In this document: positions 12,559-42,331 of the stretch, piece after piece
How positions within the stretch are numbered: the stretch's first letter is position 1
Layout of the letters: each line of letters starts with the position of its first letter
Source: Deltaproteobacteria bacterium
Lineage (GTDB): Bacteria; Desulfobacterota; Binatia; Binatales; Binataceae
Assembly: GCA_019237115.1 (NCBI GenBank)
Contig: JAFAHS010000411.1
Location: 2,855-66,854 of the forward strand
Direction: 5' to 3'
Length of the DNA stretch: 64,000 nucleotides
Position numbers and translations under genes: made by a program
Notes under the pieces: model-generated
Databases searched by the model: none
The model's input: the letters and a program-made list of their open reading frames with translations, nothing else
What the model was told of the DNA's origin: nothing

Positions 12559-14415
12559 CTACTCAGCGAATACAGAAGTCGTCGGGGCTGTCGTGTTGTA
12601 GTTAATAGCGATGGTCTCGCCGACGCCCAGCTTGAATGCGCCGGCGGTCAGCCCTGTGGCCGTTCCGTTGATCGCGATCTGGGAAACATCGCCTCCCGTC
12701 ACCACAATGCTCTTGGGACTATGCCGCACCGTATAGACGGTCGCGCTTTGAGGATTCTGGAGGCCCGCGGCAACCTGATTCGTCAAATCACTGCCGGCGC
12801 TTGGCCACGGATTCGCAATTACGCCCACCGGATTGTAGCCCGTGTTGTTGACCACCACCGAAGCGGTGCCGAGCAGGTTGATCAGATTGCCGCCGGCGTT
12901 GCTGAGCAAGTTCTGACCGAGGTTCCAACTCTCCGAAGTGCCGGAGCCGCCCGTCATGTCGATCGCCGGTGTCTGCCCCGTCCCTTCGATCCGATTGCCA
13001 GTCATGAGGACATGCGTCGCATCGGACAACTGGATTGCAGCTCCACCGGCTGATGAATTTGCGTTCTCGAATACATTGCCGACAATCACGAGATCATGCA
13101 CCGGGACGCTGTTGGCGATCGCCGGGCCGGCGCAGTTCTTAATCACATTGCCCGAAATCACGTGATGGGAGGTCTCCTTGGGTGAATCCGAGGACGTTGC
13201 CGTGAAAAAGATCCCGGTCCCCGGGAGGCCCGCGATCGGCGTTACATTCGCAATCATGTTGCCGACGATGGAGGCGCCGCTTGCACCCGGCCCAATCAGC
13301 GAGATGCCGCGGCCGGCCGGCTGCAGGATCGAACAGCCGACGATCGAGCAGTTGCGTGCGCGTAACTGAAAGCCGTACGCTTCGTTGGCGGACGATCCGG
13401 TGGCCACCCCGATCCCGCCGATCGCCACGCAACCCACAAAGGCCACATTCTCGGCCGGCTGGTGCGTGTCGAAATGCACCGTATCAGTAAGCATCGAGGT
13501 ACAGTGTGACACCACGATATTGCGCTGCACGCCGTTTTGAAAAGTGCCGCTGCTGCCGCCCGTCGTTACTGAATGGCGCGTGTGGGAAAAGCGGCAGCCG
13601 CTGATGCTCACGTTCTGGGAGGCCCCGCCGACAACGATTCCATAACGTTCGTTGGCGGGCGGCTGGACGTCGCTGATGTGATGGATATAGCAATCCGAAA
13701 TCTTGGCATCGCGCACGGATTGAAGCTCGATGCCGCTGTGGAAAGCGTCGTGCACCTCGAGCCGTTGGATCTGCAAATTCTCGATGAAGCGGAAGTGGGT
13801 AAAGCCCAGCTTCAGCGTCGACGAAGTGGCGTCGGTGGTGAGCGAGAAATCCGATAGCGTGATGTTCTCGAGCATTGTCGGCTGCACCAACTGCGCGGTA
13901 TCGGCCACGGTATACGTATCAAACACTTGGTCGTCGACCAGGACTACGCCTGAGGCGGCGGTATCCGGCCGGACCTGTTTCACCTCGCCGGCATGCTTGG
14001 TGGGAATTTCGGTATCCACCGACTTGTTCGAAAACAGCAGCACGTAGTCGTTGGGCTGGAACGAAGCCGCATCCCCCGCCGCGAGTTGCAGCGAAGTGTC
14101 GCCCCTCGCGGTATCCGCGGTTAGCGGACGCGCCGTGCCGAAGGTCAGTTGAGAGGCATCCAGGGCGGGCGACGCCGGGCTTCCGGTCATCATCTGGCTG
14201 CTCGCCACAAACACCGTGATACCCATCCCCTCGCCTTGAATCTGAACGTTGCTCGACGTGATCTGGATCGAGCTGGTGAGCGGATAGGTCCCCGCCTTCA
14301 CGAAGATCTTGCCGCCGGTTGCCGGCAACGCGTTGATCGCCGACTGCAAATCAGTGAAGTCGCCGTTGCCGGCAATATCCACTACAAAAGTAGCCTCAAA
14401 GCGGTCTATCGCCAT
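12559..14415 (-). CDS. tailspike-like right-handed beta-helix protein (pectate-lyase-3 type N-terminus)
   Basis: 618 aa. 'GNGDFTDLQSAINALPATGGKIFVKAGTYPL...VQIQGEG' resembles the N-terminus of phage tailspike/depolymerase proteins. Repeated beta-helix turns follow. It is the last gene of the eCIS operon. Confidence 0.65.
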   Translation of the reverse strand: MAIDRFEATFVVDIAGNGDFTDLQSAINALPATGGKIFVKAGTYPLTSSIQITSSNVQIQGEGMGITVFVASSQMMTGSPASPALDASQLTFGTARPLTADTARGDTSLQLAAGDAASFQPNDYVLLFSNKSVDTEIPTKHAGEVKQVRPDTAASGVVLVDDQVFDTYTVADTAQLVQPTMLENITLSDFSLTTDATSSTLKLGFTHFRFIENLQIQRLEVHDAFHSGIELQSVRDAKISDCYIHHISDVQPPANERYGIVVGGASQNVSISGCRFSHTRHSVTTGGSSGTFQNGVQRNIVVSHCTSMLTDTVHFDTHQPAENVAFVGCVAIGGIGVATGSSANEAYGFQLRARNCSIVGCSILQPAGRGISLIGPGASGASIVGNMIANVTPIAGLPGTGIFFTATSSDSPKETSHHVISGNVIKNCAGPAIANSVPVHDLVIVGNVFENANSSAGGAAIQLSDATHVLMTGNRIEGTGQTPAIDMTGGSGTSESWNLGQNLLSNAGGNLINLLGTASVVVNNTGYNPVGVIANPWPSAGSDLTNQVAAGLQNPQSATVYTVRHSPKSIVVTGGDVSQIAINGTATGLTAGAFKLGVGETIAINYNTTAPTTSVFAE

Positions 14416-14633
14416 CGGTCGCCCCTATCCCGCGTGTGACTTTGCTGCATTCAATTCTTCCTGAGGTTTACGCGAACCAGCAAGCAGCGGCGCGCGATGA
14501 AGCTTATTCCGCTTGGAACGCGATGACGAGTTTCGGCGTTAACTTCCTCGGATGGATCGGCGCCTCGCGGCAAGCGCCGGAGATGATGTACTTCCGGATC
14601 TGAATTCCTTCTAAGTGGCTCACTCTGGCCGAT

Positions 14634-40341: not shown

Positions 40342-40360
40342 GGGTTGACCCTCCTCCGCC

Positions 40361-42331
40361 TTAAAGCTGTCCGGCCATTTGCTGAATCTGGATGATGACG
40401 AACTCGGCGGGCTTGAGCGGCGCGAAGCCCACAATGATGTTTACGATTCCGTTGTTGATGTCGGTCTGAGTCGTGGTCTCACTGTCGACCTTGACGAAAA
40501 AGGCTTGTTGCGGCGTGGTCCCCTGAAACGCGCCCTGGCGGAACAGGTCCTGCATGAAGGCGCCGATGTTGAGCCGTATCTGCGCCCACAGCGCCTCGTC
40601 GTTGGGTTCAAAGACGACCCACTGAGTGCCGCGAAAAAGGCTCTCTTCGAGAAACAGGGCGAAGCGGCGCACCGGCACATACTTGTAATCGTCGGCGAGT
40701 TGGTCCGCGCCAAAGAGCGTGCGGGCGCCCCACGCGATCGGGCCAAAAACGGGAAAGGAGCGCAGCGCGTTGATTCCCAGCGGATTCAAGACTCCGTTCT
40801 CGCCGTCCGTCAGTTTGTATTCAAGCTGCTGGACCCCGGTCAGGCTCGCATCAGTTCCCGCCGGCGCCTTAAAGACGCCGCGGGTGGCGTCCGTTCGCGC
40901 GTAGAGGCCCGCCATCGTCCCGCTGACAGGCGTCGGCCGCAACCGGAAACCGTTGAGCGGGTCCGGAATGTCAAGGCGAGGGAAATACATCGCGGCGTTC
41001 CGGTTGCGCAGTGAGGCGTTCGTGTCCAACCAAGCCGCGATCGCCGTTGGACTGTCGTTGGCGCCGACCGGTCCCGGGCCTTGCGGGGGATCCATCAGAT
41101 AAAACGCGCGCCGCTGGTCGCAGAGGGAATTGGCGTTGGTGGCTACTTCAAAGGCGTGGTTGTCGGTGCCAGCCGTCATCCGCGCCGTCGCCGGGATGCA
41201 CAGGATATTGAACAGATCCGCGTTGACCAAGGCGAACATGCCGGTCTTCAGATTCGGATCGCCCGACAGTCCTCCCGCCATGCCGTCCGGATCGGTGGCG
41301 AAATTCCATATCCCGTTGCCGCCGGACTGGGGCGAAACCTGCGCGCCCGCCGCGGCTCCGCCAACGGTATATTGCTGCACGTTCGCGGCGCCGGCGGCGT
41401 CGAGGCCGAGTGCGGTAGCCAGCGTCCCGGCGCCATCGGCAAACTTCAAAATATCTGCAGCGTTGCCCGTGCCGGCTTTGAACTGGAGGAAAACCTCGGT
41501 GGTCGCACTGCCCACGAGTCCCACTGTGACCGTCGCCAGGCTCGAATCAGCAGCACGGATCAGGCTCTGCAACGTCGCCGCCAGCGATGCCAAAGTCGCG
41601 GGAGGCGTAGCGCTCAGGGTGATTGTTTTGGCGGGATTAGCGTTGAGCGCCACGGTCATCGAGTCGCTCGCCTTGGGCACACCCGCAGGCAGTTTGCCCA
41701 GGGCAAATGCGCTGCTGAGCGTGCCGGTTTGAGCAGGCGGATGAGTAGACGTGGGCGTCGCCGTCGGCAGCGCAAGCTGGATCAAGCTCGAGGCGTCGTT
41801 TACCGTGGCCACTGCGTCGTTGGCCTGGGTGCTGTCGATAAGCAGGTTGCGGAAGGTCTCTGAGCTGAGCACCTGCGGCTTTCCCGCCACCAGCGTCACT
41901 TCGGTTACGGTCAGGTTAAAAAGCTTGGTCGGATCGGTCGTGCCGTAGTCCACGTCGATCCGGACATTGTTGCCCCAGTTGCCGGGGCTGGCCGCGCTCG
42001 CCACCAAGACGTTGTTCCCCGCGCCGTCCTGCAAAGTGACAGCCGCCGTCGTGGCGGGGTTGGCGGTCGACGTCGTGCGAACCACCCAGGCGGTCGTGCC
42101 ACCATTGAGAAAAAACTGCTGGATGGCGTAGCTCGCCTCGCTCAGCAGGTCGAGCCCGCCGAACTGGCGCTCGAAATCGCCGAAACTGAAAACCTGGACC
42201 GGCTGATTCAGCGGACCTCGCGGGAAGTAATCGACAAAGGCCGCGATCGCGGTGCTCACGCCCGTGATTGCCCGCACGCCGCTTGGAATCTCTTCGATAT
42301 AGACGCCTGGATAAGTTGGGGTAACCGCCAT
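40361..42331 (-). CDS. contractile tail sheath protein (Afp2-4-like)
   Basis: 656 aa from 'MAVTPTYPGVYIEEIPSGVRAITGVSTAIAAFV'. C-terminal 'GINALR......IWGARTL...D..YKYVPVRR'. GGAAGGAAGG RBS. Confidence 0.9.
   Translation of the reverse strand: MAVTPTYPGVYIEEIPSGVRAITGVSTAIAAFVDYFPRGPLNQPVQVFSFGDFERQFGGLDLLSEASYAIQQFFLNGGTTAWVVRTTSTANPATTAAVTLQDGAGNNVLVASAASPGNWGNNVRIDVDYGTTDPTKLFNLTVTEVTLVAGKPQVLSSETFRNLLIDSTQANDAVATVNDASSLIQLALPTATPTSTHPPAQTGTLSSAFALGKLPAGVPKASDSMTVALNANPAKTITLSATPPATLASLAATLQSLIRAADSSLATVTVGLVGSATTEVFLQFKAGTGNAADILKFADGAGTLATALGLDAAGAANVQQYTVGGAAAGAQVSPQSGGNGIWNFATDPDGMAGGLSGDPNLKTGMFALVNADLFNILCIPATARMTAGTDNHAFEVATNANSLCDQRRAFYLMDPPQGPGPVGANDSPTAIAAWLDTNASLRNRNAAMYFPRLDIPDPLNGFRLRPTPVSGTMAGLYARTDATRGVFKAPAGTDASLTGVQQLEYKLTDGENGVLNPLGINALRSFPVFGPIAWGARTLFGADQLADDYKYVPVRRFALFLEESLFRGTQWVVFEPNDEALWAQIRLNIGAFMQDLFRQGAFQGTTPQQAFFVKVDSETTTQTDINNGIVNIIVGFAPLKPAEFVIIQIQQMAGQL

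Follow-up and report, generated by a model that had tools for sequence, protein, structure and literature searches.

What kind of machine is encoded by the run of minus-strand genes at positions 12559-42331 of the 64,000-nucleotide stretch of contig JAFAHS010000411.1 analysed here (hereafter the window), what does it carry and against whom, and how is it set in the chromosome? A first-pass annotation of this DNA had read these genes as an operon for a contractile injection system (CIS) of the extracellular type (eCIS), neither a prophage nor a canonical type VI secretion system (T6SS). That core reading proved right, and the pair of a DUF4255 cap protein and a AAA+ ATPase is present. We consider it quite probable that the genes, 21 in number, encode a lineage II eCIS-type injector with the release, cargo, fibres and island described below. 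A 32.1-kb island at a tRNA-Gly(GCC) gene carries the cluster as its only cargo, and the cluster is of a widespread and already catalogued kind, not a new kind of system.

According to the coordinates of the open reading frames (ORFs), the interval contains 21 tightly packed genes, so that the previous figure of about 25 was an overcount, and ~99% of it is coding. Eleven gene junctions overlap by 1, 4 or 8 nt. The ten overlaps reported earlier (38229/38232, 37033/37036, 34777/34780, 33410, 30167, 29805/29812, 28682/28685, 27782/27785, 24962/24965 and 21888/21891) are all present, and an eleventh, of 1 nt, was found at 39074. The largest intergenic gaps within the cluster are 72, 64 and 218 nt long. 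In 5' to 3' order the genes are the following, with the E-values of the supporting matches in brackets.

40361-42331, minus strand: contractile sheath (Phage_sheath_1C; PDB 9ezm 1.4e-74, 8bky 1e-69)
39814-40341, minus strand: inner tube of the gp19 family (Phage_T4_gp19 4e-43; tCIS and AlgoCIS tubes at ~1e-13)
39074-39808, minus strand: PF12322 (T4_baseplate) family protein, between the tube and Pro/Ala-rich genes (5.9e-7, 29.8 bits, cut-off 24.5)
38229-39074, minus strand: Pro/Ala-rich protein, candidate tape measure by position, with a C-terminal IGRIEVRA...SLxDYL motif
37033-38232, minus strand: DUF4255/Pvc16_N cap, or tail terminator (Pvc16_N 1.2e-42; weak C-terminal IPT/TIG-like match, TIG 0.0035)
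35081-37036, minus strand: Afp15-like AAA+ ATPase with an N-terminal winged-helix domain (AAA 6.4e-28, WHD 1.4e-18)
34777-35073, minus strand: small conserved protein of 98 amino acids after the ATPase, with counterparts in 13 fetched loci
33410-34780, minus strand: first cargo protein, with an N-terminal DUF4157/eCIS_core domain (HELAH) and a C-terminal OmpA-like domain (eCIS_core 1e-30)
31419-33410, minus strand: second cargo protein, with an N-terminal DUF4157/eCIS_core domain (HELSH) and a C-terminal Ntox16 toxin domain (eCIS_core 7e-32, Ntox16 6e-11)
30893-31417, minus strand: DUF6714 protein, candidate immunity partner of Ntox16 (DUF6714 2e-15)
30167-30820, minus strand: tube initiator with an Afp7/Cis7-like tube domain (CIS_tube 6e-4, sub-threshold; JS623 orthologue 3e-72)
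29805-30167, minus strand: LysM-like small baseplate protein of 120 amino acids, whose C-terminal half aligns with the LysM domain of Halogeometricum borinquense WP_006053414 (Phage_tail_X only 0.18)
28682-29812, minus strand: gp27/VgrG-N-like hub, half of a split Afp8 (family-profile matches to CIS spike proteins)
28170-28685, minus strand: gpV/gp5-like spike (Phage_base_V 1.2e-17)
27782-28105, minus strand: PAAR-like (DUF4280) spike tip (DUF4280 0.0027, sub-threshold; H. borinquense PAAR protein 8e-8 by phmmer)
27432-27785, minus strand: gp25-like baseplate wedge protein (GPW_gp25 6.5e-15)
24962-27430, minus strand: Baseplate_J-1, Afp11/Cis11-like wedge protein of 822 amino acids (Baseplate_J 2.6e-9; Streptomyces Cis11 9gtp_1K 2e-13)
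21888-24965, minus strand: Baseplate_J-2, Afp11-like wedge protein of 1025 amino acids (Baseplate_J 5e-9; TIGR02243 5.5e-70; also matches 9gtp_1K)
17488-21891, minus strand: protein of 1467 amino acids with eight He_PIG Ig repeats and a weakly gpI/Mu Gp48-like N-terminus (He_PIG 7e-94; JS623 orthologue 2e-51)
14634-17477, minus strand: tail fibre with an N-terminal DUF6519 domain and C-terminal Ig-like choice-of-anchor-D/ASH domains (DUF6519 5.4e-62, 210.6 bits; choice_anch_D 1e-29)
12559-14415, minus strand: right-handed beta-helix protein of 618 amino acids, 218 nt after the fibre gene (Beta_helix 6e-14, NosD 4e-8)

Pfam searches gave matches above the curated cut-offs to Phage_sheath_1C, Phage_T4_gp19, Pvc16_N/DUF4255, AAA, Phage_base_V, GPW_gp25 and, in two proteins, Baseplate_J, and further to WHD, eCIS_core/DUF4157 (two proteins), Ntox16, DUF6714, DUF6519 and Beta_helix. 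The parts list drawn up earlier is thus borne out by Pfam for the sheath, tube, cap, ATPase, spike, gp25 and Baseplate_J proteins, and by other comparisons for the hub, PAAR-like tip, LysM-like protein and initiator; its tape measure is placed by position, and its P2-gpI-like protein by sub-threshold matches. No NCBIfam match was obtained for the PF12322-like, Pro/Ala-rich, 98-residue, initiator, LysM-like and PAAR-like proteins. The features used to define the eCIS superfamily (Chen 2019; Geller 2021) were found together, namely a sheath with a gp19-type tube, a DUF4255 cap with a AAA+ ATPase, a baseplate set and DUF4157 markers.

Since a T6SS has the same fold families for its sheath, tube, gp25, VgrG-like and PAAR-like parts, and a Clp-family ATPase is encoded nearby, at 46802-49138, a canonical T6SS was considered as well. 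However, the DUF4255 cap and the Baseplate_J proteins mark an eCIS, and the absence of a TssJLM/TssA/ClpV-type set asserted by the first-pass annotation was confirmed among the larger ORFs of the window, where no TssBC-type genes were found either. The gene at 46802-49138 was rejected as a clpV gene: it is the housekeeping clpA, which relatives without the island also have beside clpS, in conserved synteny. The probability that we leave to a T6SS is close to nil.

The eCIS-type cluster was then compared with other genomes. A genome scan returned at least 600 matches, 80 loci of which were fetched and their gene order read as far as the 10-kb flanks. All 80 have the same order: sheath, tube, PF12322-family gene, variable gene, cap, ATPase, DUF4157 genes and then the baseplate genes, in the sequence initiator, LysM-like, hub, spike, PAAR-like, gp25 and Baseplate_J. 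The hosts of the listed loci include Alpha-, Beta- and Gammaproteobacteria, Acidobacteriota, Streptomyces, Chloroflexota, Cyanobacteria, Verrucomicrobiota and one Methanotrichaceae archaeon. More than 5,100 sheath homologues were found in the protein collection, and many of the top 120 are ~56-85% identical over most or all of their length. The tube is 51-84% identical across phyla in the fetched loci (L001-L080), and it is much better conserved there than the sheath (mostly 66-84% versus 40-62% identity). The gene order does differ from that of Afp/PVC, as had been pointed out. It is not unusual, however, being the standard order of a very widespread lineage.

This lineage, which had been held not to be deducible, can be recognised from traits described in 2019. 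In lineage II, Afp6, Afp12, Afp13 and Afp14 are divergent or absent, afp11 is present in two copies in subtypes IIa and IIc, and separate gp27 and gp5 ORFs take the place of a single afp8 in IIa, IIb and IIc (Chen et al. 2019). The cluster studied here agrees with every one of these traits: it has two afp11 (Baseplate_J) genes, a split afp8 and no detectable Afp14, and also a PAAR-like gene. By these genes, the locus matches a lineage II eCIS-type system with the pattern of subtypes IIa/IIc. Baseplate_J-1 resembles the IIa representative, H. borinquense, at a low level only (23.5% identity across 38% of its length), and it shares 28% identity with the S. clavuligerus-type proteins across 32% of its length. 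With megaplasmid homologues, on replicons of Novosphingobium, Ensifer, Ciceribacter and Nostoc, it shares ~41% identity from end to end. A metagenome survey of CIS does not employ these subtypes.

An identical gene order is found in an uncharacterised CIS cluster on plasmid pMYCSM01 of Mycobacterium sp. JS623 (NC_019957.1, ~54.5-83.6 kb). Pairwise matches cover 18 of the 21 proteins, including the sheath (2e-127), tube (2e-83), ATPase (1.6e-152), hub (4e-118) and Baseplate_J-1 (4e-129), the last being ~36-42% identical over its full length to its counterparts on this and similar replicons. Loci similar to that of pMYCSM01 are present on Ensifer, Novosphingobium, Nostoc and some Streptomyces replicons. 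The JS623 cluster differs in its cargo C-termini and in the receptor-binding domains of its fibre (kelch there, Ig-like choice-of-anchor-D here), it is plasmid-borne instead of lying in a tRNA island, and it lacks the DUF6714 and beta-helix genes; both clusters are known from their genes alone.

Among solved structures, the best sheath match is the T6SS-like CIS of H. borinquense (subtype IIa; PDB 9ezm; PMC11566945). This system shares with the cluster the split hub and spike, the PAAR protein, two genes of the Afp11 kind, DUF4157 toxin-immunity genes placed between structural modules and possibly a Tail_P2_I-type protein. Its module order is opposite (baseplate, cargo, sheath), its cap and ATPase genes are inverted, its baseplate proteins are only distantly related, it has no DUF6519 fibre, and it encodes a conserved putative anchor with six transmembrane segments that is absent here. 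The CIS-Sc system of Streptomyces coelicolor (subtype IId; PDB 8bky, 8bl4 and 9gtp) comes second to it for the sheath and first among solved structures for Baseplate_J (2e-13); it also belongs to lineage II and likewise has no recognisable Afp14. In contrast to the present cluster, CIS-Sc has a single contiguous Afp8-type spike, one afp11 and no tail fibres, and it is cytoplasmic and needs the membrane protein CisA; the similarity of the tubes is very weak (3.6e-3). More remote are Afp/PVC (subtype Ia), AlgoCIS, tCIS and the Salmonella salamae CIS, which share the sheath, gp19 tube, DUF4255 cap, AAA+ ATPase, gp25, Baseplate_J and VgrG-like spike, whereas they have multiple sheath and tube paralogues, Afp12/Afp13-type fibres and a recognisable Afp14. 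The sheath matches theirs at only 1e-30 to 1e-45, in the C-terminal domain, and in Afp/PVC the cap, ATPase and tape measure genes stand at the 3' end with the toxins after them, unlike the order here.

The PF12322-family gene is present in 77 of the 80 loci, and its product is probably an assembly factor. The position between it and the cap gene is occupied in all 65 loci examined by a gene whose product has a Pro/Ala-rich body (median 278 amino acids, range 98-1150), and in 62 of these 65 the C-terminus has the near-invariant motif V.V[ST]IGR[IL]EVRA ... [LM]SL[DE][DE]YL. The Pro/Ala-rich protein of the window has no Pfam or NCBIfam match. As the Afp14 tape measure has been reported to be absent or divergent in lineage II systems (Chen et al. 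2019), this gene may be the tape measure described as missing from them. The cap and ATPase genes that follow overlap by 4 nt. A single-sequence PDB search with the cap found nothing, and the ATPase matches those of JS623 and H. borinquense at 1.6e-152 and 9e-77, respectively. Counterparts of the 98-residue protein include one of 75 amino acids in JS623/pMYCSM01 (2e-5) and a 70-residue gene product at the same position in L082, the closest long relative, in which the gene order of the cluster also recurs.

Among the baseplate proteins, the hub had no Pfam match and its single-sequence PDB search was also empty, but a profile built from 13 family members matched the gp27-like N-terminal part of Salmonella 9rce_F at 3e-16, and also AlgoCIS 7aef_q, Streptomyces 9gtr_q and Anabaena 7b5h_AJ. 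The family profile of the tube initiator matched the Salmonella Cis7-like protein 9rce_H at 7e-4, a weak match. The putative assignments of the initiator and of the LysM-like protein are weak but consistent.

The payloads had been considered impossible to deduce from known examples. The two cargo genes, however, encode DUF4157-OmpA and DUF4157-Ntox16 proteins, both of which are architectures listed in 2012 (PMC3482391), and the HExxH motif is intact in both. DUF4157 is a core marker of eCIS and typically lies N-terminal to a toxin domain; in a haloarchaeal system, DUF4157 proteins are secreted and some are toxic (PMC11566945). Zhang et al. 2012 (PMC3482391) list Ntox16 and Tox-OmpA as PVC-associated, together with the PVC-metallopeptidase, and the PVC-type toxins described there have the same N-terminal PVC-metallopeptidase (DUF4157, HExxH) joined to a C-terminal Ntox16 or OmpA domain. 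Genes for a DUF4157-OmpA and a DUF4157-Ntox16 protein are also present in L082, whose sheath is 82% identical. Between its DUF4157 and Ntox16 domains, the second cargo protein has a hydrophobic stretch of ~35 residues (residues ~447-490), the only convincing one among the 21 proteins, which might be a membrane-insertion or translocation segment.

No immunity protein is listed for Ntox16 among the PVC-type toxins (PMC3482391), whereas here the Ntox16 gene is followed by a gene for a DUF6714 protein, the candidate immunity partner. Homologues of this protein (57-62% identical) occur on three other contigs with the same CIS type. In two of the three, the gene lies directly downstream of a DUF4157 gene, with Ntox16 annotated in one; on the third contig, the gene upstream is cut and unannotated. 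The predicted structure of the DUF6714 protein is all-alpha and confident (pLDDT 88), but nothing in the PDB resembles it (best E 1.4), so that the model lends no independent weight to an immunity role.

The target had likewise been regarded as not deducible from known examples. The anchor of the fibre is a DUF6519 domain, published as the eBAP5 baseplate-anchor domain of eCIS fibres (PMC12923769). As the eBAP5 class requires, the fibre gene sits downstream of the baseplate genes. Its product matches the DUF6519-kelch protein of JS623 at 2e-23, and it ends in two choice-of-anchor-D Ig-like domains where the JS623 orthologue ends in kelch repeats, a difference that is expected of a variable receptor-binding end. 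Loci of the eBAP5 class have Tail_P2_I-type adaptors and often pectin-lyase beta-helix domains (PMC12923769). The 1467-residue He_PIG protein is a putative fibre adaptor or adhesin; its JS623 orthologue matches Tail_P2_I at 0.039, below the cut-off. The beta-helix protein is a possible tailspike or a glycan-binding or glycan-cleaving accessory, its link to the particle being putative. Its N-terminus, read by eye, has no obvious signal peptide or strong hydrophobicity. A second Beta_helix/NosD protein is encoded at 1384-2283 on the plus strand, outside the island, so the CIS cluster is not the only place in this genome where such a protein is encoded.

From these parts, the system would form a headless phage-tail-like particle in which, by homology, a sheath surrounds a gp19 tube closed by the DUF4255 cap and seated on the baseplate. 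Going by gene position and the literature, the PF12322-family protein would join the ATPase in helping with assembly and cargo loading, and the length of the tube would be set by the Pro/Ala-rich protein. The two DUF4157 (HExxH) proteins would be the cargo, one with an OmpA-like domain of the peptidoglycan-binding type and the other with the Ntox16 toxin, whose activity in the producer the DUF6714 protein would neutralise. Binding to a glycan or a protein on the target surface would fall to the DUF6519 fibre, to the gpI-like protein with Ig repeats that partners it and to the beta-helix protein; this contact would set off contraction of the sheath, which would push the spike and its load through into the cell attacked. 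The presence of a toxin-immunity pair points to bacteria as the target.

Whether such a particle leaves its producer is a separate question, as the extracellular nature of the system had simply been assumed. The same machine could act from inside the producer, either in the cytoplasm in stress-induced death, as CIS-Sc does, or bound to the membrane and fired on contact, as in the haloarchaeal system. The best solved sheaths are indeed those of the membrane-anchored H. borinquense Cis2 (1.4e-74) and the cytoplasmic S. coelicolor Cis2 (1e-69), the haloarchaeal cluster likewise puts DUF4157 toxin-immunity pairs between its structural modules, the island has no lysis genes, and an immunity gene would also fit sibling protection in a contact-dependent system. 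On the other hand, a DUF6519/eBAP5 fibre and two more binding-type proteins are encoded here, whereas CIS-Sc has no fibres. No ORF of the island has three or more strongly hydrophobic segments, and neither of the two multi-transmembrane proteins that are encoded upstream of the H. borinquense cluster and are its candidate anchors has a tblastn match here. Baseplate_J-1 is moreover distant from the H. borinquense and S. clavuligerus types (23-28% identity over 30-40% of its length), and the gene order is unlike that of H. borinquense. We therefore regard action from inside the producer as unlikely, and release into the medium with attack from outside as the reading to be moderately favoured, because fibres are encoded and no membrane anchor was found.

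Some observations weigh against the picture of a released, fibre-bearing and toxin-loaded particle. Neither of the two systems with the most similar solved sheaths is extracellular, and the island contains no lysis cassette or regulator. The OmpA match of the first cargo protein (3e-5) is below the Pfam cut-off, as is the match of residues 10-124 of the 1467-residue protein to Mu Gp48 (0.015-0.035). The candidate immunity role of the DUF6714 protein is drawn from its gene neighbourhood, the candidate tape-measure role of the Pro/Ala-rich protein from its position, and the beta-helix gene may be unrelated cargo. What is proposed here for the particle, its expression and its localisation is read from the genes.

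The surroundings of the cluster show how it is set in the chromosome. The first-pass annotation had overlooked an integrase pseudogene, a tRNA-Gly gene and a pair of 35-nt direct repeats, all of which lie just outside the coordinates that it gave to the operon.

44219-44294, minus strand: tRNA-Gly(GCC), the integration target, holding the proximal 35-nt repeat at 44227-44261
43050-44156, plus strand: tyrosine integrase pseudogene (Phage_integrase 1.4e-14, Int_N 0.015)
12162-12196, no strand assigned: distal att-like repeat, an exact copy of the internal 35-nt segment of tRNA-Gly and one of two copies in the window

Taken together, these three features show that an integrated island carries the cluster; eCIS operons inserted at tRNA genes have been described previously. 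The repeat pair was reproduced in 0 of 100 shuffles, and no third copy is present in the window. The repeat covers the tRNA from its anticodon up to where the 3' acceptor strand begins, and it leaves out the last 8 nt. Because the 8 nt beside the distal repeat (12154-12161) agree with the end of the tRNA at only 2 of 8 positions, the distal copy is not a simple displaced tRNA 3' end. In the integrase, the arm-binding N-terminus, the TGLRASEL box and the HDLRHTF...Y box are each in a different frame, which implies at least two frameshifts; the gene is either a pseudogene or an assembly error. A search of the whole window against Rfam returned only the tRNA.

Three Binataceae relatives share the synteny of tRNA-Gly, CDP-alcohol phosphatidyltransferase, nadB, clpA, clpS, a FemAB-like gene and rmuC, and their similarity to the window ends exactly at the 3' end of the tRNA (44219). 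Past the tRNA, the sequences of the relatives L084, L085 and L086 resemble neither the window nor each other, and no empty site with the left flank of the window was recovered from them. In L082, the cluster adjoins mreBCD and PBP2 instead of tRNA-Gly. A sigma-54-dependent activator without a receiver domain is encoded there just upstream of the sheath gene (8527-9588 of L082, plus strand). The island of the window contains no such activator and no match to a sigma-54 promoter: no site was found upstream of the sheath gene, and the number of pattern matches was at chance level. A megablast search with the DNA from the sheath to the ATPase gave no match among plasmids. The small ORFs in 42340-43060 and 11600-12560 include no credible excisionase, regulator or lysis gene. 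Scans for sigma-70 promoters and terminators at both ends of the cluster were uninformative, except for a terminator-like hairpin with a T-run at 12343-12361 (minus strand), ~200 nt past the last gene of the cluster and within the island. Beyond the distal repeat, the ~560 nt that separate it from an LssY_C gene (11598-12161) contain no credible gene.

A phage-type tyrosine integrase, integration at a tRNA and flanking direct repeats, together with sheath, tube and baseplate folds of phage origin, would also be found in a decayed prophage or an R-type tailocin, a tail module that outlived the loss of its head and replication genes and acts as a bacteriocin without protein cargo. Against such an origin stand the DUF4255 cap, which had no match among 50,697 phage records, the dedicated AAA+ ATPase and the DUF4157 cargo genes. 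The best phage sheath match does not exceed 32.5% identity over 75% of the length, and the same headless architecture recurs in the 80 fetched loci and on plasmids. No holin or endolysin cassette accompanies the cluster, and, in agreement with what had been stated earlier for capsid, portal and terminase genes, no head, portal or terminase genes were found among the larger ORFs across the 64 kb. A prophage or tailocin is for these reasons very improbable. By the preferred reading, the island that carries the injector would have entered a Candidatus Binataceae chromosome at tRNA-Gly(GCC), and its integrase would since have been inactivated by frameshifts. The whole operon may move as one self-contained cassette, with an integrase that directs it to tRNA-Gly.

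The assignment of the host is based on its flanking genes. The 90% cluster of RmuC and the best named NadB matches (78-89% identity) all belong to Candidatus Binataceae, phylum Binatota, and by these sequences the host is a member of this family, an uncultured soil bacterium. The rest of the window carries housekeeping genes, among them thiolase, panE, a lyase, nadB, clpA, a FemAB-like gene, rmuC, a rimO-like gene and ftsK. A 637-codon ORF at 44339-46252 (minus strand), a possible further cluster gene on the upstream side, was rejected as an Arg-rich artefact antisense to nadB (45119-46720, plus strand). The minus-strand gene at 44344-44931 probably encodes a CDP-alcohol phosphatidyltransferase of 195 amino acids, as its length and its DNA-level homology with the gene annotated in the relatives suggest.

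The cluster leaves the current picture of lineage II systems unchanged. What remains of interest is modest and lies in the exact boundaries of the island, the pairing of Ntox16 with DUF6714 and the conserved Pro/Ala-rich gene. A larger claim, namely that the cluster stands for a very widespread subclade of lineage II without a studied representative, with a Pro/Ala-rich tape measure, a tRNA-Gly cassette and an extracellular antibacterial weapon of Binatota, is possible but doubtful in our view. The locus nevertheless provides a cleanly bounded example of a lineage II CIS in an uncultured candidate phylum, Binatota, an example whose cargo can be recognised and which has a fibre module and a candidate immunity gene, and the boundaries of its island define an exact 32-kb unit. 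Work on lineage II may gain from it the conserved Pro/Ala-rich protein, the small gene after the ATPase and the DUF6714 partner for Ntox16. If the proposed function is true, its fibres and its immunity-protected Ntox16 toxin would make the system an extracellular antibacterial weapon of Binatota.

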